This document shows, piece by piece, positions 14,442-32,036 of a stretch of 39,084 nt of DNA; the first letter of the stretch is position 1, and each line of letters starts with the position of its first letter. Under the pieces are notes generated by a model. The model saw only the letters and a list, made by a program, of their open reading frames with translations, was not told the origin of the DNA and did no database searches. A program made the position numbers and the translations under genes. The DNA lies in the NCBI GenBank assembly GCA_964497115.1, contig CAZCCX010000001.1, positions 1-39,084 on the forward strand, written 5' to 3'. The stretch comes from an uncultured Desulfobacteraceae bacterium. Lineage in GTDB: Bacteria; Desulfobacterota; DSM-4660; Desulfatiglandales; HGW-15.

Positions 14442-15938
14442 CTAAGGCTGCATCTCCTTGAGCTTGCGCCAGAGCGAACCCCTATTGATTCCCAATATTC
14501 TTGCGGCCTCACTCTTGTTGCCTTTCGTGGCCTGCATCACCTCTAAGATGTATTGCTCATTAAGTTGGGCCAGCGTAAAAAAGTCTTTCCTCTTCAGGCC
14601 CGTAGATTTCTTCACCTCCTGAAAGCTCTGAGGCAGATGTTCCTTTTCCAGTTCGTCTCCTTCACACACGATGACGGCGCGCTCAATGGCGTTCTCGAGT
14701 TCTCGTATATTGCCGGGAAAGGGATAGGCGAGGAACTGGGCAAGAATTTCATCAGAAATCCCATTGATCTCTTTCCCGAATTCTTTTCGATATTGATCCA
14801 GGAAATAGCTGCACAAAAGGGGGATGTCTTCTTTGCGCTCACGAAGCGGCGGGAGGTCTATGACAAAGGTGTTTAGCCTGGAATAGAGGTCCTCAAAAAG
14901 GTCTCCATCATCGGGCGCCTTTTTAAGTATCCGCTCTGTTGCCGCAAGGACCCGCACCTCCACCGGGATCTTCTCCGTTCCGCCCTTTCTGATAATGGTC
15001 TCTTCCTCCAGCACACGCAATAGCCCGGCCTGTATTGAGACGGGCGTGTCACCGACTTCATCCAGGAGTATGGTTCCTCCCGATGCCGCTTCAAAGACCC
15101 CCTGCTTGGGGTGGCATGGGCCGGTCGTCCCCTTTTCTTGTCCAAACAATTCCTTTCGAAGCAATTCCTCGTTAAAAGACCCGCAGTTGATCGTTGTAAA
15201 CTGATTTTCTTTTCGTGGACTGAGCAGGTGAATGGTTCTGGCGACCCGTTCTTTGCCCGTACCGGTCTCACCCTGAATGAGCACCGGGCAATCCAGGGAG
15301 GCGACCTTTTGTATATTCTTTTTGACCTCCAGGATGGAGGCGGTTTCACCGATAAACCTGTGTAGAGGAGAATCAAAAGAATGGCCGGATGGAGCCGAAT
15401 CGGCAGAAGAGGGACGTCTTGGAACGCTCTGCCGCGAGGTATACCTTTCGAGTACTTCAGGGTTGAGGACCCTTTGGCCGGAGCCAAATTTGCCCCCCCC
15501 TTCCTGAGCCCCCGTGTTATTTTCCCCAACAGGGGGGCTGATAATGATCATGCCGGTCTTTGAACCGAATTGCTTGAGGAAATCCCAGAAGGCCCTCATC
15601 TCGTCTTTTTCAAAATAGGCCGAATCCAGGGCCTCGGCGGCCTCTTTGACCTTTTTGTTTCCATATCCGGTTAGGAGCACGGTTTTCAGAGCGGGATGTA
15701 TCTCTTTGAGCTTGGCAATCGTGGTTAACCCGTCCATGCCGGGCATCTTCTGGTCCACGACGGCGGCCTGAATCTGCGTCTTCCGGGCGATATCAAGGGC
15801 CTCTTCGCCGCTTGCGGCAGGCAACGGCTCAAACCCCCTCAGACGGATTCGTTCCGAGATGGAGTCCAGAAACTTCTTTTCATCGTCCACCAGAAGAACG
15901 GCTATATTTTTTGTATCCACGATGGTCAACTCCGACAC
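14442..15938 (-). CDS. NtrC-family REC-AAA+-Fis regulator lacking the GAFTGA motif
   Basis: GTG start with AAAGGA upstream. REC domain (VLLVDDEKKF..VVDQKMPGMDG). Walker A GETGTGKE, Walker B GGTILLDEVGD, FPGNIRELEN, and the Fis-type HTH GNKSEAARILGINRGSLWRKLKE. The GAFTGA position reads EKGTTGPCHPKQG (nt 15114-15131). Confidence 0.85.
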   Translation of the reverse strand: MSELTIVDTKNIAVLLVDDEKKFLDSISERIRLRGFEPLPAASGEEALDIARKTQIQAAVVDQKMPGMDGLTTIAKLKEIHPALKTVLLTGYGNKKVKEAAEALDSAYFEKDEMRAFWDFLKQFGSKTGMIIISPPVGENNTGAQEGGGKFGSGQRVLNPEVLERYTSRQSVPRRPSSADSAPSGHSFDSPLHRFIGETASILEVKKNIQKVASLDCPVLIQGETGTGKERVARTIHLLSPRKENQFTTINCGSFNEELLRKELFGQEKGTTGPCHPKQGVFEAASGGTILLDEVGDTPVSIQAGLLRVLEEETIIRKGGTEKIPVEVRVLAATERILKKAPDDGDLFEDLYSRLNTFVIDLPPLRERKEDIPLLCSYFLDQYRKEFGKEINGISDEILAQFLAYPFPGNIRELENAIERAVIVCEGDELEKEHLPQSFQEVKKSTGLKRKDFFTLAQLNEQYILEVMQATKGNKSEAARILGINRGSLWRKLKEMQP

Positions 15939-22422: not shown

Positions 22423-23787
22423 CTAGCCTTCCATCCCGTAGCGTTTCAGTTTCCTCCAGAGGGAGACTCGATCGATACCCATGATCTTGGCCGCCCTGGT
22501 TTTGTTTCCGCCGCTTTTTTCCAGGACCCATTTTATATAATGTTTCTCCTGTTCATCGAGTGTGGGGATGGCAGACGGTGTATGACGGTAGGTCTCGATG
22601 GAGAGATTGCGGATAGATTCCGGAAGGTCCGCCGCCCGAACGGTATCGCCGTTCTCCAGGGCCACGGCCCTTTCGATGACGTTCTCCAGTTCCCTGACGT
22701 TCCCGGGCCACCCGTATTGGGTCAGCAGTCCCATGGCCTCCGGGTCGATGTGGCGGATATCTTTGCCCATGGCTTGGCTTTTTTGGGCCAGAAAATGGTT
22801 GGCCAGCAGAGGAATATCGCCTGACCGTTCCGTCAGCGGGGGAAGGCGGATTGTAATCACATTGAGACGATAATAGAGATCCTGTCGGAAATCTTCCGAC
22901 TCCACATCCTCTTTGAGGTTGCGGTGCGTTGCGGAGACAAACCGCACGTCGACCGGGATGGGCGAAAGCCCGCCGACACGCAGCAATTCTTTTTCCTGGA
23001 TGACCCGCAGAAGTTTCACCTGCATGGTTAGGGGCATGTCCCCGACTTCGTCCAGAAAAACGGTGCCGCCGTCGGCAAATTGAAGTAGACCGGCCTTATC
23101 GATCGATGCGCCGGTAAAAGCCCCTTTTTCATGACCAAACAGTTCGTTGGCCATCAACTCTTCGGTAAAAGAACCGCAATTGAATGCCACGAATTTCTTC
23201 GCGGATCGGCCACTCAGATCATGGATCGCCTTGGCGACCAGTTCCTTTCCCGTCCCGCTTTCTCCCAGGAGGAGTATATTCGTGTCCGAAGGGGCGATCT
23301 GCTGAACCGTTTCAAGCACCCCGTTCATGGACTCGCTCCTTCCGACAATGTAAGGAACCCGACTCGCCTTTTCGAGAGAGGCCCGAAGTTCAAGGTTTTC
23401 CATCTGAAGCCTTCGTTTAATCAAGGCCTCCCTGGCGACCTTTCGGACCTCGTCTATTTTATAGGGTTTAGCGATATAGTGATAAGCCCCCTCCTTCATG
23501 GCCTCTACGGCGCTGTCCACCGTTGCATATCCGGTGATCATAATCACCTCGGTGTAAGGCAGCAGGCGCCTGCTCTCCTCCAAGACCTTCATTCCGTCGA
23601 CATTTTCCATCTTGAGGTCAGTGATGACGAGATCAAAGATCGTGGTATTCAAGCACTCCAAGGCCTGCTTACCGTTGTCTACCGAAACGACGTCATAGCC
23701 TTCTTTTTCGAGGATATGCTCCAGATTCCTACGGGCCATATCCTCATCTTCTACGATAAGTATTCTTTCCTTAATGCGCTCCGCCAT
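22423..23787 (-). CDS. Sigma54-dependent response regulator (NtrC family: REC-AAA+-Fis) with canonical GAFTGA
   Basis: ORF 22423-23991. The likely ATG at 23787 (MAERIKERILIVEDE) overlaps the kinase stop by 17 nt. Motifs: GESGTGKE, GHEKGAFTGA, GGTVFLDEVGD, WPGNVRELEN, and the HTH GNKTRAAKIMGIDRVSLWRKLKRYG. Confidence 0.9.
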   Translation of the reverse strand: MAERIKERILIVEDEDMARRNLEHILEKEGYDVVSVDNGKQALECLNTTIFDLVITDLKMENVDGMKVLEESRRLLPYTEVIMITGYATVDSAVEAMKEGAYHYIAKPYKIDEVRKVAREALIKRRLQMENLELRASLEKASRVPYIVGRSESMNGVLETVQQIAPSDTNILLLGESGTGKELVAKAIHDLSGRSAKKFVAFNCGSFTEELMANELFGHEKGAFTGASIDKAGLLQFADGGTVFLDEVGDMPLTMQVKLLRVIQEKELLRVGGLSPIPVDVRFVSATHRNLKEDVESEDFRQDLYYRLNVITIRLPPLTERSGDIPLLANHFLAQKSQAMGKDIRHIDPEAMGLLTQYGWPGNVRELENVIERAVALENGDTVRAADLPESIRNLSIETYRHTPSAIPTLDEQEKHYIKWVLEKSGGNKTRAAKIMGIDRVSLWRKLKRYGMEG

Positions 23788-26240: not shown

Positions 26241-28055
26241 TTATTGAATTCCGTAAAAGAAATAGATGATTGTCAGCTCAACGACCAAGAAGATCACCGT
26301 CATTACGGCGCCCGCCTTGGCATAGTCGATCGTCCGATATCCCCCGGGTCTCATGATCAGGGCATTGACCTGGTGGGTCGGCAGGACAAAGGTGTTGGAG
26401 GCGGAAAGACCCACCACGAGTGCGGCCATCCGCGGGTCTCCACCGGCCATGACCGCCATATTCATACAGAGGGGAACCAGCAGGACCGTGGCGCCCACAT
26501 TGGAAACTACAAGGGTGAAAAAGGATGTCATCAGGCCGACCACGGCGAGGAGCACGATGGGAGAGGGTTGACCGATGAGGGCCAGGACCCTGTTGGCGAT
26601 GAAGGCGGCGGTGCCCGTTTTCTCAAAGGCGATCCCTAACGGGATGAGACCGGCCAGCAAGAAAACTGTCATCCAGTCCACGGCCCGGTAGGCTTCGTCC
26701 ACCGAGAGGACCCCTGTGATGATCATACCCAGGGCCCCGGACATCAGGGCCACCGAGAGCTGGATTTTGAGAAAAATAATCTGTGCCAGGGCCACGGCCA
26801 GCCACAACACGGCCAGTTTCGCTTTCTTGGGCCGCATGATCTCCCCCTCCAGCGGTGTGGCAAAGCTAAGCGCCCTGGGTTGCGGCCTGTTTTTCAGGAT
26901 GTGGAACCTCTCCCAGGGCCCCTGAAGGAGGAGTGTGTCACCCATTCTAAGAGGGACATGGGTGAGTCCGCTGTAAAAGATCTTATTCCCCTTGAACAGT
27001 GCAACGGGGTTGACGCCGTAGAGTTCCTTGAAATTGACCTCGCTCATCGTCTTGCCGATGAGTTCGGAGCGCGGGGAGACGATGGTCTCCGCCATTCCCG
27101 CATTGGTCCTGGACAGGTTCTCGACAAACACTTCAAGACCCTCCTTGATCTCCCACCCATACTCCTTGGCCAACTTCCTGACGTTTTTCTCTCTTCCTAC
27201 AACGGCAATGTCATCGCCGGCAAGGATCTGATCGATGCTTCGTGGAACAAAATTCTTTTCTTTTCGGGCGGCATGGCCGATACCCACCACGGTGACAAGG
27301 AACCATTGCCTGACCCCCAAATCCTCCAGGGTTCGCGGTCCCTTGAAACCGTCGGGGACATGGAGTTCGAAAATGGTCCCCAAGGCCCGGTATTCCTCCA
27401 TTAGGGCGGCCGTCACACCCTTGTCTGTATTACCTTCGCCTTCCGGGAGGATGAACCTGCCAAACAGGACAAAATAGAGGATCGCACTGGCAAGGAGGCA
27501 AATACCGATGGGCGTTTGTGTGAACAGGCCGAAGGGTTCCAATTCTTTGCCCCCCAGCACCATCAGATCGTTCAAGAGAATCGTGGGACTGGCGCCGACC
27601 AGGGTAATGGTCCCCCCGATAATGGCACAAAACCCCATGGGCATGAGGATTCGGGAGACGGGGATTTCCATTCGTTTCGCGATTCGCTGGGCAGCCGGTA
27701 GAAAGAGGGCGGCCGCCCCGATATTCTGCATCAAGCTGGAGATCAGCCCCACAGTCCCGGCGATAAGGGTGGTGACCCTCTTTTCACTCTTTCCCGCCAA
27801 CTTGATGATGGGACCGGCGACCTGATTCATCACACCGGTCTTATCCAGGCCGGCGCCGATAATGATAACGGCAATGATGGAACAGACCGCATTGCTGCTT
27901 AGGCCGACAAAGGCCTCTTGCGGGGAGACAAGACCGATCAGGGGCAAAAGAACCATCATCATGATTCCGACCACATCCACTCTCACCCACTCAAAGACAA
28001 ACAGGACAATCACGAAGACAAGCACAACCATCGTCATCAACATCTCAGGTGTCAT
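26241..28055 (-). CDS. SLC13/DASS-superfamily permease with two central TrkA-C (RCK_C) domains
   Basis: ORF 26241-28064. The ATG at 28055 lies 8 nt downstream of AAGGAG. Polytopic N- and C-terminal halves flank a soluble insert of about 180 aa with two RCK_C-like units (LEDLGVRQWFLVTVVGI...DDIAVVG and FKELYGVNPVALFK...GDTLLLQG). Confidence 0.85.
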   Translation of the reverse strand: MTPEMLMTMVVLVFVIVLFVFEWVRVDVVGIMMMVLLPLIGLVSPQEAFVGLSSNAVCSIIAVIIIGAGLDKTGVMNQVAGPIIKLAGKSEKRVTTLIAGTVGLISSLMQNIGAAALFLPAAQRIAKRMEIPVSRILMPMGFCAIIGGTITLVGASPTILLNDLMVLGGKELEPFGLFTQTPIGICLLASAILYFVLFGRFILPEGEGNTDKGVTAALMEEYRALGTIFELHVPDGFKGPRTLEDLGVRQWFLVTVVGIGHAARKEKNFVPRSIDQILAGDDIAVVGREKNVRKLAKEYGWEIKEGLEVFVENLSRTNAGMAETIVSPRSELIGKTMSEVNFKELYGVNPVALFKGNKIFYSGLTHVPLRMGDTLLLQGPWERFHILKNRPQPRALSFATPLEGEIMRPKKAKLAVLWLAVALAQIIFLKIQLSVALMSGALGMIITGVLSVDEAYRAVDWMTVFLLAGLIPLGIAFEKTGTAAFIANRVLALIGQPSPIVLLAVVGLMTSFFTLVVSNVGATVLLVPLCMNMAVMAGGDPRMAALVVGLSASNTFVLPTHQVNALIMRPGGYRTIDYAKAGAVMTVIFLVVELTIIYFFYGIQ

Positions 28056-28157
28056 TCGCCACACTCCTTTTCCATTCTCAAGGTCCGGATGGGTCTCATC
28101 CTTTAGAACACCGCTGCATTAAGAAAGCCCGCTTCTATTCTCTATTCTATTACACCC

Positions 28158-28214
28158 AAAAAAGCAGAAAATCCACTCTCCTGGCGACAAGGAGAGTCGG
28201 AGTATCTGCTTTTT
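28158..28214. terminator. Nested hairpin, likely a bidirectional intrinsic terminator
   Basis: Inner stem CTCTCCT (28176-28182) pairs with AGGAGAG (28190-28196). Outer stem AAAAAAGCAGA (28158-28168) pairs with TCTGCTTTTT (28205-28214). T-runs are present on both strands. It lies 34 nt after the stop of 28248-28805. Confidence 0.5.
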
Positions 28215-28247
28215 CAGATGGTTTGTCTGACGGAAATCAAGGGATAT

Positions 28248-28805
28248 CTAGAGCATTGAATAGACATAAACAGGCTGGGCAGGCCTTTCTCCCTCCTCGG
28301 TCCTGTTCACAAGCCCTTCTTGTTCCGCGTCGGAGACCACAAACTCGATGTCCTTGAATTCGTGAGTGATTTCTGCAAGGGCTTGATCCCTTTCACTGAA
28401 TTTGATCGCATGTGCAAAGGGGACGCCGAGCCTTTCGGCTTCCTTCCTGAATTCTCTCACGTTCTCTTCGGCGAGGGCGCGAAAGTCTTGGCAGAGCTGT
28501 TTGTGAGAGGAAGAAAACATCTTGAAGGTCTCAGAGGATAAAGGGGTCGTGTTCAAGGCCAATATCTCGTAGGACATTCTTTGGGCCATCTCCAGGGAAT
28601 AATCGATGACTCTCCTCGAAAAAGCGCTTTCCCGGCCGATCACGAGGAGTCTGCCGGGGTGTTCTTCAGTCATCTCTTCTTGGAATAGCTTGCGGGCGGA
28701 TTCCTGTTCTCCTGCCTCGGCAAATGCGATAGCCTCCTGCACCCGGTCCATCTTTTTACTGAGCCGGGTTGCCTTTTTCTTGAGTAAACCGAAGATTCGC
28801 GTCAT
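28248..28805 (-). CDS. USP-like protein with N-terminal basic segment and FAEAGE helix
   Basis: GGAGG RBS 9 nt upstream. N-terminus KKKATRLSKKMDRVQEAIAFAEAGEQESARKL. A USP-like core follows (RLLVIGRESAFSRRVIDYSLEMAQRMSYEILALN ... IEFVVSD). Confidence 0.6.
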   Translation of the reverse strand: MTRIFGLLKKKATRLSKKMDRVQEAIAFAEAGEQESARKLFQEEMTEEHPGRLLVIGRESAFSRRVIDYSLEMAQRMSYEILALNTTPLSSETFKMFSSSHKQLCQDFRALAEENVREFRKEAERLGVPFAHAIKFSERDQALAEITHEFKDIEFVVSDAEQEGLVNRTEEGERPAQPVYVYSML

Positions 28806-28855
28806 CTTTGAAGTCCTCCTTCATGCGATTTCATGTGGGACATGGATATGCGGTC

Positions 28856-29362
28856 TCAATCCCGCACGACCACCAGGGGGGTGGCCAGGTTCTGCCTGAT
28901 CTGTCTGGGCACCACATGGCGTCTCGGTTTGCCCGCCCCGCCCGGATCCGCATCCTGTCCTTCGTCATAGATGGTGAGCACCACATCCCTGTTTTTTTGA
29001 ACGTAATGAATAACTTCTTCGTCCGCTATGCCGTACTTCAGAGTCAGGTGAAAGGGGACCCCCGCATTTTCTGATTCGGGCAGGAGTTCATTAAGGTTCT
29101 TGCGAGCCTCGACCATAAGCCGGCCCGCCGTTTCATGTTCTCCCGCCTCGGCAAAGGTCACGGCCATCATGGACCCTTCAAGGTATTTCTTGACCACCTC
29201 CACGCGCCGGTGCACTTTCTTGAGATACGCATTGTAACGACCGGTCCTGATAATCTGCAGCACATTCAGTTCCATTTTCAAGCGCTGGCAGAGCTGCACG
29301 GCCTGGTGAAAGACCTTTCGCGTCGGTTTGACCCCGTCTATGGCCAACAAGACCTTTTCCAT
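28856..29362 (-). CDS. Universal stress protein family protein with internal FAEAGE insert
   Basis: KVLLAIDGVKPTRKVFHQAVQLCQRLKMELNVLQII, then the insert MMAVTFAEAGEHETAGRL, then the USP C-terminal half (EEVIHYVQKNRDVVLTIYD ... PLVVVRD). Confidence 0.7.
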   Translation of the reverse strand: MEKVLLAIDGVKPTRKVFHQAVQLCQRLKMELNVLQIIRTGRYNAYLKKVHRRVEVVKKYLEGSMMAVTFAEAGEHETAGRLMVEARKNLNELLPESENAGVPFHLTLKYGIADEEVIHYVQKNRDVVLTIYDEGQDADPGGAGKPRRHVVPRQIRQNLATPLVVVRD

Positions 29363-29373
29363 CGTCCCGACCT

Positions 29374-29559
29374 CTATACTCTCAAAACAGGGCGGTCTTC
29401 CACCCTTCGTTCCGCCCTTGGCCTGCTCTTTTTGCGGTTCTTTTTCATCGGTCTCTCATTCAAAAAAGCAAGGGCGGTCTTCCGGTCGCCGGCCTCGGCA
29501 AAGGTGATAGCGACCATCAGCCTATCGAGCCAGTTTAATGGTGTCTTTTCCCCGGTCAT
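29374..29559 (-). CDS. Small protein (61 aa) consisting of a FAEAGD helix plus a basic tail
   Basis: ORF 29374-29625, but the first 22 codons overlap the sigma54 promoter. The ATG at 29559 has a GGAGG 6 nt upstream. Translation: MTGEKTPLNWLDRLMVAITFAEAGDRKTALAFLNERPMKKNRKKSRPRAERRVEDRPVLRV. Confidence 0.5.
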   Translation of the reverse strand: MTGEKTPLNWLDRLMVAITFAEAGDRKTALAFLNERPMKKNRKKSRPRAERRVEDRPVLRV

Positions 29560-29607
29560 TTTCATCCTCCTCTGGTGGATGTTGATGTGGTGACTTGCCC
29601 CATCATT

Positions 29608-29626
29608 GAGCAATAGATGTGCCATT
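29608..29626 (-). promoter_or_regulatory. Consensus sigma54 (-24/-12) promoter driving the FAEAG/USP operon
   Basis: The minus strand reads AATGGCACATCTATTGCTC. TGGCAC is at 29624-29619, followed by 5 nt and then TTGC at 29613-29610. This is an exact match to TGGCAC-N5-TTGC with GG-N10-GC spacing. It lies about 50 nt upstream of the ATG at 29559. Confidence 0.7.
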
Positions 29627-29711
29627 ATCCCTTAAGGTGGCATATCTATTTGATATAATTACTTAAACTCGTAGAGAAGCGGATGAGAGAGACAAAACAC
29701 TATTGTTGCGC

Positions 29712-29778
29712 TTTGTAACGGATAGGGTGCATTGTATAATTTTTATTTTGATATCAAATGGTTATGAAGCGTTACAAA
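29712..29778. promoter_or_regulatory. Inverted repeats upstream of the sigma54 promoter (candidate activator-binding sites) overlapping a possible Lon promoter
   Basis: Perfect palindrome TTTGATATCAAA (29747-29758). A 9-nt inverted pair: TTTGTAACG (29712-29720) and CGTTACAAA (29770-29778). TTGTAA-16 nt-TATAAT (29713-29740) faces the Lon gene. The region lies 90-170 bp upstream of the -24/-12 element. Confidence 0.35.
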
Positions 29779-29954
29779 AAGGAAAGGGGTGTTTCAGATT
29801 GCAACAGGTTGGCGGCTTGAGATGATATCGGGTCACCGAAGAGGTGAAAGATATCTGTCTTGCGGAGGAATAGTTGGGCCTGTCGATAAAACTCGCTTGC
29901 GAAAGAAGCCTGCGGCATCTAATATAGTATCATGCGAAGAATCCTGGAGGGCCC

Positions 29955-32036
29955 ATGCGAATATTCAAAAAGGATGTAGAGATGGAGGAACTTCCCGGTG
30001 ATATCGAAGAACTCCGTGAGACCGTGCTCAAGGCCAGGATGCCGCCCGATGTAGAAACGGTGGCCCTCAAAGAGACTGCAAAACTGTCCAAAATGAGCCC
30101 CTCCTCTGCCGAATATACCATTGGCACCAACTATATCAGCTACCTCGTTGGTCTTCCCTGGAACAGGGTCACGGAAGACAATCTGGATATGAAACGGGCG
30201 GAGTCTATTCTTGATGAACAGCATTTCGGCCTCAGGGAGGTCAAGGATCGAATCCTGGAGCACTTGGCGGTCAGGATCATGAGATTGAGCCGAAGCCACC
30301 GGATCCTGGTCGTTGACGACGAAAAAATGACCCGCAAGAATCTGGACCACGTCCTCACGAAGGAAGGGTTCAGTGTGGTGACCGCCGCCAGCGGTGCGGA
30401 GGCCGTCGAATACCTGGATAAGGACGATTTTGATGTGGTTGTGACGGATTTCAAGATGGAAAAGGTGGACGGCATGGGGGTCCTGGAGAAGACCAAGGCG
30501 AAGGATCCGGGTATCGAGGTCATCATGATCACCGGCTACGCCACGGTGCCGACAGCCGTAGAGGCTATGAAGAAAGGGTCTTATCAATTTCTCTCCAAAC
30601 CGCTGAAGCTCGATGAGATCAGGTTGACGGTCAGCAATGCCCTGTCCAAAAAGAATGCCCGATTAGGCTCGCGAGGACCCGCTCTCTGTTTTGTCGGGCC
30701 GCCCGGCACGGGGAAGACATCACTGGGCATGTCTATTGCCAGGAGTCTTGAGAGAAAATTCATCCGCATGTCTCTGGCAGGGATGAAGGATGAGGCCCAA
30801 ATCAGGGGTCATCGGCGAAGCTATGTGGGGGCCCTGCCGGGACGCATTATTCAGGAGATCCGGCGGATCGAGACCAGAAACCCGGTTTTCATGCTGGATG
30901 AGCTGGACAAGATCGGGCAGGACTTCAAGGGAGACCCTGCATCGGCCCTGTTGGAAGTCTTGGACCCTGAGCAGAATAGTCACTTCATGGATCATTACCT
31001 GGATGTGCCCTTTGATCTTTCCAGCGTGATGTTTATCGCCACGGCCAATACTATTGATCCCATACCCGCCCCACTTCTGGACCGTCTGGAGATCCTTCGG
31101 CTCTCCGGTTATTCGGAGGAAGAAAAACAGAAAATTGCTTTCAGCTATTTGATTCCCAGAGAGATTGAAGAGGCGGGGCTCTCGGATCACCCCCCCGTCT
31201 TTGCCCCTGAGGCCGCGCATAAGATCATCAGGGAATACACAAGGGAAGCGGGGCTCAGGAACCTCCAGAGGCAGATTGCCTCAATCTGCAGGAAGATGGC
31301 CAGAGAGACGTTACAGAATGAGGGGCGGATGGCGACGGAAGTGATTACCCCGGAACGGGTCGAGGCGTGGCTTGGACCCAGGAAATACTATTTCGAAGTG
31401 GCCGAGGCCAAGGAACGAGTCGGCGTGGCCACGGGCCTGGCCTGGACCGAGGCGGGGGGAGAGATCATTTTCATAGAAGCTACCAAGATGCGCGGACGAG
31501 GCCGGCTGATCTTGACCGGGTCTCTCGGGGAGGTCATGAAGGAGTCTGCACAGGCGGCATTGAGTTATATCCGGAGCCACACCCGAACGCTGAATATTGC
31601 GGAGGATTTTTTTGACGATTGCGACTTGCATATCCATATTCCCGCCGGCGCCATCCCCAAGGACGGCCCCTCCGCCGGACTGACCATCGCTGTTTCCCTC
31701 ATCTCACTCCTCACCGACCGGCCGAGCAAACGGGAGGTGGCCCTGAGTGGAGAATTGACGTTGAGCGGGAGGCTGCTCCCTGTGGGGGGCGTGAAAGAAA
31801 AGGCCATGGCCGCTCATAGAGCGGGTGTGAAATGCGTGGTCTTTCCGGCCAAAAACAAGGCGGACCTGCGTGAGATCCCGGAAGATATCGAAAAGGAGTT
31901 AGAAATTATTACCGTGAACGAACTGGAAGAAATTGTGGATCTGGTCCTGAAGCCAGTAGAACCTTCAGGTGCGATAACGCCATCGCGTGTTAAACCTTCA
32001 ATCAAGAAGTCCCCTTTCTCGCCTGCTGTGCGTTGA
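29955..32036 (+). CDS. lon: LonA-type ATP-dependent protease lacking the LON N-domain and carrying an inserted response-regulator receiver domain
   Basis: GGAGG RBS. Residues 1-112 match the helical segment preceding the Lon AAA+ module ([32 protein letters not shown]). Residues about 116-233 form a REC domain ([32 protein letters not shown]). Then Walker [10 protein letters not shown], Walker [25 protein letters not shown], catalytic Ser in PKDGPSAGL and catalytic Lys in GGVKEK. Confidence 0.9.

Follow-up and report, generated by a model that had tools for sequence, protein, structure and literature searches.

In a 39,084-nt stretch of DNA from an uncultured Desulfobacteraceae bacterium (contig CAZCCX010000001.1, analyzed at its full length and hereafter called the window), a run of minus-strand genes that begins with a small open reading frame (ORF) is preceded by an exact match to the −24/−12 consensus of sigma-54 promoters. 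Our analysis makes it highly probable that this is an enhancer-dependent sigma-54 promoter, activated by the neighboring NtrC-type regulator via conserved boxes, with bending of the DNA at elements resembling binding sites of integration host factor (IHF). Since the box motif, which we derived independently, and the layout are the same as those published for DVU3305 of Desulfovibrio vulgaris, the window appears to be another instance of the known DVU3305-type regulon and not a new kind of system. The promoter design of D. vulgaris is thus kept in another order, with a strikingly rigid spacing, and a defined enhancer can now be assigned to a conserved, uncharacterized stress locus of sulfate-reducer relatives.

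A consensus sigma-54 promoter precedes the first gene

The promoter core, TGGCAC-ATCTA-TTGC (TGGCACATCTATTGC), lies on the minus strand at 29624-29610 and matches the −24/−12 consensus exactly. It had been proposed in an earlier reading of the window made from the letters alone (the sequence-only reading), and it is found precisely where that reading put it, with the −24 GG at 29623-29622, the −12 GC at 29611-29610, and exactly 10 nt between them (GG-N10-GC). The exact 10-base core occurs once in the 39-kb window, while 0.07 occurrences are expected from base composition. Across the 2.1-Mb assembly there are 13 exact cores versus 3.9 expected, several of which precede a Shine-Dalgarno sequence and an ATG. 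When scored with a sigma-54 position weight matrix trained on 87 promoters of D. vulgaris Hildenborough (Kazakov 2015, PMC4641369, additional file 6), as the earlier reading had suggested, the site reaches 17.9 bits, compared with a training median of 16.8. With the same matrix it ranks 14th in the assembly and is the sole site of at least 12 bits within the window; high-scoring sigma-54 elements elsewhere in the assembly are many (e.g., C87:5799, C154:201, and C64:10125). The core is intergenic, correctly oriented, and 65 nt 5' of ATG 29559, in a 395-bp intergenic region (29560-29954) that holds both promoter and enhancer.

Conservation points the same way, the position and orientation of the element being kept in orthologous loci. 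A −24/−12 element stands 50-67 nt upstream of the small-ORF ATG in 10/10 orthologous loci with enough upstream sequence, which span at least three families of the order. Nine of these elements were found by pattern scan, and the one at locus L096 (TGGCACAGAAAATGC, with ATGC as its −12 element) was placed by hand. By sequence and conservation, TGGCAC-N5-TTGC at 29624-29610 is a genuine sigma-54 promoter. By the −12 convention, transcription would start at ~29598 (±2), leaving a leader of ~39 nt ahead of ATG 29559 that includes GGAGG.

The promoter overlaps the annotated start of the first gene. The 83-aa gene model begins at ATG 29625, which overlaps the TGG of the −24 element and is in frame with ATG 29559. 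The sequence-only reading had noticed that this start lies inside TGGCAC, considered the model too long, and proposed ATG 29559 behind a GGAGG instead. Both signals are where it placed them, GGAGG at 29570-29566 being six nt 5' of ATG 29559, and the ortholog family bears out the shorter gene. There are 11 homologs of the first-gene protein, all 58-61 aa long, which can be aligned over their full length starting at the Met equivalent to 29559; the reading frame closes 3-39 nt 5' of that Met in most orthologs, and a Shine-Dalgarno sequence lies 5-9 nt ahead of it in every one. Because of this alignment, frame closure, and ribosome-binding signal, and because ten orthologous loci have a FAEAG-motif gene for 58-61 aa with the −24/−12 element 50-67 nt ahead of it, the true start is ATG 29559 and the 83-aa model from 29625 is wrong. 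One gene model is thereby corrected, the first gene (29559..29374, minus strand), as delimited by translation and homolog alignment, encoding a 61-aa, not an 83-aa, FAEAG-motif protein with a basic tail. In 11 loci (58-61 aa), this tail ends in RPVLR(A/V).

Two palindromic boxes at fixed spacing define a conserved enhancer

Upstream of the promoter, two boxes match the palindrome GTTGCA-N3-TGCAAC, both read on the minus strand. The distal box (site 1 or box 1, GTTGCAATCTGAAAC, 29805-29791) matches at 11/12 positions and is centered at ~-200 from the predicted start; the proximal box (site 3 or box 3, GTTACAAAGCGCAAC, 29719-29705) matches at 10/12 and is centered at ~-114. Boxes with at least 10/12 matches occur exactly twice in each of the 10 ortholog upstream regions, i.e., 20 boxes versus 0.13 expected in shuffles (shuffle maximum 2). 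A box matrix built solely from the sites of other genomes, with the window's own sites left out, ranks site 1 first (19.4 bits) and site 3 second (17.6 bits) in the whole 2.1-Mb assembly. The geometry is equally constant: 86-89 bp separate site 1 from site 3, and 93-96 bp separate site 3 from the promoter TGG, both in 10/10 orthologs.

Three further elements accompany the boxes, again on the minus strand. A degenerate box (site 2, TTTCCTTTTTGTAAC, 29785-29771) begins 20 bp downstream of site 1. Its left half is T-rich and degenerate, and its right half-site TGTAAC (29776-29771), near −175, is the sole conserved part; a TGYAAC-like half-site (at least 5/6) is found at +29 from the start of site 1 in 7/10 orthologs. 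The distal IHF-like element TAACCATTTGATA (29764-29752, centered at ~-160) matches YAANNNNTTGATW, the reverse orientation of WATCAANNNNTTR, at 9/9 positions, and such a reversed element (at least 8/9) lies at −45 or −46 from site 3 in 8/10 orthologs. The proximal IHF-like element TATCAAATAGATA (29655-29643, centered at ~-51), between site 3 and the promoter, matches WATCAANNNNTTR at 8/9, and 6/10 orthologs have a match of at least 8/9 located −29 to −32 relative to the TGG. The conserved enhancer, as predicted from these alignments, is therefore made up of two 15-bp GTTGCA-N3-TGCAAC palindromes, a half-site, and two IHF-like elements at rigid spacing.

We searched for the composite pattern (box, 71-74 nt, box, 78-81 nt, promoter) in 400 evenly sampled other genomes of the phylum, which included few members of the order, and found no match. 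The pattern is thus specific, and this null result says little about how far the design has spread. Within the assembly, three single boxes considered as further members of the regulon (C71:2493, C229:228, and C37:2704) were rejected, there being no sigma-54 element near them and two of them lying in coding sequence. No second sigma-54 promoter or box precedes the transporter gene farther down the run, in either the window's gap or that of seven orthologs.

The promoter probably belongs to a known type of stress regulon

In D. vulgaris, the regulator DVU3305, the kinase DVU3304, and the receiver-Lon protein DVU3303 have been described as a "three-component system for general stress" (Rajeev 2011, Genome Biol 12:R99, PMC3333781). 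The reported DNA-affinity-purification chip (DAP-chip) targets of DVU3305 are DVU3303-3305 and DVU3302-3298, the latter encoding hypothetical, membrane, and UspA-type proteins, and in electrophoretic mobility shift assays (EMSA) DVU3305 was positive on GTTGCGATATGCAAC and negative on a mutated site (PMC3333781). Upstream of DVU3302, DVU3305 boxes are reported at −227 and −146 and a sigma-54 promoter at −56, the boxes (TGTTGCA-N3-TGCAACA) being conserved in other Desulfovibrionales (Kazakov 2015, BMC Genomics 16:919, PMC4641369).

Set beside these published accounts, the design in the window is homologous to that of the DVU3302 promoter, which DVU3305 activates. The window and the DVU3302/DVU3305 system are alike in having 1) a sigma-54 promoter 56-67 nt upstream of a first small hypothetical gene, 2) a pair of (T)GTTGCA-N3-TGCAAC(A) boxes separated by 81-89 bp, of which the proximal box precedes the −24 element by ~90 bp, 3) a receiver-Lon gene in divergent orientation, the locus also encoding a kinase and an NtrC-type regulator, and 4) small hypothetical proteins, Usp-type proteins, and a transporter as targets. 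They differ, by the same accounts, in the −12 element, which is the consensus TTGC in the window and TTGT at DVU3302; in the transporter, which is of CitMHS/DASS type with TrkA_C domains in the window and the TSUP-family DVU3299 in D. vulgaris; and in the position of the kinase and regulator genes, which lie downstream on the target strand in the window and behind the Lon gene in D. vulgaris. Variants came from an alignment search of the genome collection with the receiver-Lon protein, which returned 80 loci, mostly of ordinary Lon, and four (L016-L019) of the receiver-Lon type. Desulfocurvus and a Desulfovibrionaceae assembly (L016:7500-7900 and L019:7500-7900, reverse strand) retain a first gene with the FAE motif as well as the boxes, and their −12 elements are degenerate (TTGA and TTGT), like the TTGT of DVU3302.

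A second D. vulgaris regulator, DVU3334, has a site, CGTTACATTTTGTAACG, of the type GTTACA-N3-TGTAAC that belongs to this class of box; at the kdp promoter, DVU3305 is reported to bind a site overlapping it (PMC3333781). Because DVU3334 binds this type of box and shares the kdp site with DVU3305, the box class of the window fits either regulator. DVU3334, a sigma-54 regulator of kdp, has the helix-turn-helix (HTH) closest to that of the window regulator; unlike it, DVU3334 sits in and controls kdpFABC, whereas the window has no kdp genes and shows the Lon, kinase, and FAEAG-gene context of DVU3305.

The arrangement also recalls sigma-54 promoters assisted by NtrC and IHF, such as E. coli glnHp2, Klebsiella nifH, and Pseudomonas Pu, in which GG-N10-GC is combined with dimer-binding palindromes located 100 bp or more upstream and with a bend made by IHF in between. 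The NtrC site is TGCACC-N5-GGTGCA, which differs from the GTTGCA-N3-TGCAAC box of the window. Unlike these classical promoters, the window has a second IHF-like element, which lies between boxes split by 86-89 bp. In the searched parts of the two D. vulgaris studies, the half-site and the two fixed-offset IHF-like elements do not appear, with the qualification that IHF comes up only as main-text background in one (Kazakov 2015, PMC4641369) and was not among the terms searched in the other (Rajeev 2011, PMC3333781). We regard the rigid arrangement of the three boxes and the two IHF-like elements as a modest addition to what is known of this regulon.

The neighboring NtrC-type regulator is the best candidate activator

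The sequence-only reading had singled out the GAFTGA-containing regulator at 22423-23787 as the activator, and this choice has held up well. The protein contains GAFTGA as well as REC, Sigma54_activat (7.5e-69), and HTH_8 domains; the receiver-Lon gene has a kinase gene and a regulator gene near it in 8/8 sufficiently long loci; and the boxes are of the type bound by DVU3305 and DVU3334. Although the assembly encodes about 15 sigma-54 activators, this NtrC-type regulator is the best candidate, and we propose it as the protein that binds the boxes. Among the DNA-binding domains of 36 D. vulgaris activators, that of DVU3334 is the closest to its HTH.

A related observation concerns the recognition helix. 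In all the Lon-linked regulators examined, those of Desulfovibrionaceae assemblies included, it reads G(I/V)DR(V/A)(S/T)LWRK(L/I)KR (window HTH, 22423-22560). This helix is nearer to that of DVU3334 than to that of DVU3305, and D. vulgaris DVU3305 may have diverged from the rest of its own group.

Several observations weigh against this interpretation. Over the 42-aa DNA-binding segment, the regulator's HTH is only 14/42 identical to DVU3305 while being 26/42 identical to DVU3334, and its GAFTGA corresponds to GAFSGA in DVU3305. Strict orthology to DVU3305 is therefore unproven on sequence comparison, and it is synteny that favors a DVU3305 role for the regulator. There are also about 15 other activator genes in the assembly, one of them elsewhere in the window. 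The gene for sigma-54 itself, rpoN, was not found in the 82%-complete, 2.1-Mb, 286-contig assembly, either with the Pfam models Sigma54_DBD and Sigma54_CBD or by tblastn with the RpoN of a relative. As to IHF, four HU-family genes were found in the assembly and three were scanned; two have IHF-alpha as their best match, both under the curated cut-off (99.8 and 87.3 bits versus 111). The IHF-like elements fit a short, AT-rich consensus, and IHF would be a presumed ligand. Finally, a strong terminator-like hairpin at 28220-28155 lies behind the third gene, and the sigma-54 promoter may serve the first three genes only.

The failure to find rpoN has a likely explanation. The gene is present in 30/30 relatives, both same-genus genomes included, and because of this and of the about 15 activator genes here we attribute the missing gene to the incompleteness of the assembly rather than to true absence. 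Since the same-genus genomes measure 3.2-4.2 Mb versus 2.1 Mb here, the true completeness of the bin probably falls well short of the stated 82%.

Alternative explanations

Other sites in the intergenic region could bind the activator, or the boxes could serve another gene. The sequence-only reading had proposed as upstream activating sequence a perfect 12-nt palindrome, TTTGATATCAAA (29758-29747, minus strand), and a 9-nt inverted pair, TTTGTAACG/CGTTACAAA (29778-29770 and 29720-29712, minus strand). Both features exist as described, 90-180 bp upstream of the promoter, and the 9-nt arms do include true half-sites (TGTAAC and GTTACA). Neither is significant on its own, since shuffles of the 395-bp intergenic region contain a perfect palindrome of at least 12 nt in 8% of cases and an inverted pair of at least 9 nt in 11% (p about 0.08 and 0.11). 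No ortholog has the 12-nt palindrome, of which only the left part, TTTGATA, overlaps the IHF-like TAACCATTTGATA. As for the pair, CGTTACAAA is the left half of site 3, the proximal box, and TTTGTAACG is the orphan half-site (site 2), so that the arms read as parts of two separate conserved elements and not as one long-range inverted repeat. The conserved unit is instead a 15-bp palindrome with a 3-bp spacer, like the DVU3305 site reported as validated by EMSA, and the strongest box, 29805-29791, falls outside the interval first proposed. It is thus quite improbable that these palindromes are themselves the binding sites, and the conserved boxes (29805-29791 and 29719-29705) with the half-site take their place as the putative upstream activating sequence. 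The boxes are also in a divergent region shared with the receiver-Lon gene (29955-32036), and they might be mainly or additionally operators of that gene, acting through a sigma-70 promoter under modulation by the regulator. The D. vulgaris compilation lists the same boxes for DVU3303, at −90 and −9 (PMC4641369), the DAP-chip results include the DVU3303-3305 operon among the targets of DVU3305 (PMC3333781), and a sigma-70-like TTGTAA-16-TATAAT (10/12) on the plus strand at 29713-29740 has its −35 inside site 3. That match, the lone consensus match and rejected as the promoter of the Lon gene, is at chance level (1 found and 1.1 expected) and is not seen in orthologs, whereas it is to the sigma-54 promoter that the boxes keep their rigid distance (93-96 bp). 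We consider a main or additional operator role unlikely, with a real chance nonetheless of being correct; it is compatible with activation of the sigma-54 promoter by the neighboring regulator and does not replace it.

The promoter might also be a true sigma-54 promoter that answers to another enhancer-binding protein encoded elsewhere. The about 15 activator genes, including the second one in the window (at about 14859-15353), and the modest 14/42 identity of the neighbor's HTH to DVU3305 leave room for this. It becomes improbable in view of the kinase and regulator found near the receiver-Lon gene in 8/8 loci, the regulator with a recognition helix GIDR(V/A)SLWRKLKR that is close to that of DVU3334, which is reported to bind the same class of box. 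Within the assembly, moreover, the boxes are all but confined to this promoter, as would fit a regulon that is local and self-contained. At the far end of the scale, the −24/−12 match could be a product of chance in an organism without sigma-54, the genes being transcribed from an unrecognized sigma-70 promoter. The failure to find rpoN in the assembly would agree with this; the 0.07 exact matches expected per window, the maintenance of the element in position across orthologs together with the enhancer, and the excess of exact cores in the assembly (13 versus 3.9, several before a Shine-Dalgarno sequence and an ATG) do not. Lack of sigma-54 would leave about 15 activator genes without a use, and the presence of rpoN in all 30 relatives, same-genus genomes included, argues in the same direction. 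We therefore give this last possibility very little credence, and activation of a sigma-54 promoter by the neighboring NtrC-type regulator is the reading that we follow below.

Proposed mechanism

Our model is as follows. The adjacent HAMP kinase would phosphorylate the NtrC-type regulator (22423-23787), dimers of which would occupy the boxes near −200 and −114 plus the half-site near −175. The IHF-like elements near −160 and −51 would probably bend the DNA, so that a hexamer could be assembled and touch the polymerase. Sigma-54 polymerase would be held at 29624-29610 until ATP hydrolysis opens the promoter, with transcription from ~29598. The resulting transcript would lead to the 61-aa FAEAG-motif protein and then to two further FAEAG-motif, Usp-like genes.

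A bolder idea, which we put forward as a long shot, is that one kinase has two outputs: the sigma-54 activator, working through the fixed-geometry enhancer with its three boxes and two bends, would turn on production of three proteins with a common FAEAG(E/D) helix, and the divergent receiver-gated Lon would recognize or degrade them via that motif. If true, this would amount to a stress circuit that generates pulses. More modestly, the three boxes, spread over an IHF-bent loop of 86-89 bp, might put the three dimers of the hexamer in position beforehand. The fixed geometry of boxes and IHF-like elements, three and two in number, allows a precise hypothesis on the assembly of a hexamer at a split enhancer.

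Gene content and synteny of the locus

Behind the 61-aa gene, the minus strand carries a second gene (29362..28856), encoding a 168-aa Usp-like protein with an internal FAEAGE motif, and a third (28805..28248), whose 185-aa product carries FAEAGE in its N-terminal part. A helix of the form (A/V)x(T/A)FAEAG(D/E)xxxA is common to the first three proteins. Searches of Pfam and NCBIfam gave no match for the 61-aa or 185-aa protein and no confident match for the 168-aa protein, whose weak Usp match (22.5 bits) is under the Pfam cut-off. Farther along the same strand follow a CitMHS/DASS-type transporter with TrkA_C domains (28064-26241), a cytidylate-kinase-like protein (26212-25361), a HAMP-HisKA sensor kinase (25282-23771), and the NtrC-type response regulator with GAFTGA and a Fis-type HTH that is the candidate activator (23787-22423). 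On the plus strand, the divergent gene (29955..32036), which shares the 395-bp intergenic region, encodes a receiver-AAA-Lon protease of the DVU3303 type; site 1 sits 150 bp upstream of its ATG.

Directly 3' of the third gene, an intrinsic-terminator-like hairpin followed by a U run (28220..28155, minus strand) folds at −36.7 kcal/mol (z = −6.5; 0/200 shuffles fold as well), its inner stem being listed as terminator-like. Comparable hairpins with a T run (−20 to −34 kcal/mol) are present at the corresponding position in six orthologs, and the one in L011 is weak (−12.8). An Rfam scan of 27900-30100 returned only sub-threshold miRNA-like matches, on the terminator hairpin. This hairpin may split what looks like a seven-gene operon, with at least part of the sigma-54 transcripts ending there, or act as an attenuator.

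Homologs of the 185-aa protein were found in 16 other genomes of the order. The full gene order of the window (small ORF, Usp-like, 185-aa, and transporter) recurs in L011 and L096-L101, and a reduced unit consisting of the small ORF and the 185-aa gene is found in L012, L013, and L015. Wherever a locus extends far enough, the FAEAG unit and the receiver-Lon gene are divergent, and the receiver-Lon, kinase, and sigma-54 regulator genes share a neighborhood in the 8/8 loci that are long enough (L011-L015 and L016-L018). Just 5' of the transporter, a conserved tiny single-helix peptide of ~26-33 aa, which has no counterpart ORF in the window's 186-nt gap (28065-28250), is encoded in L096 (2190-2282), L097-L101, and L011; one example is MDAHFFFGLALILFTFFLCYWFRKQK.

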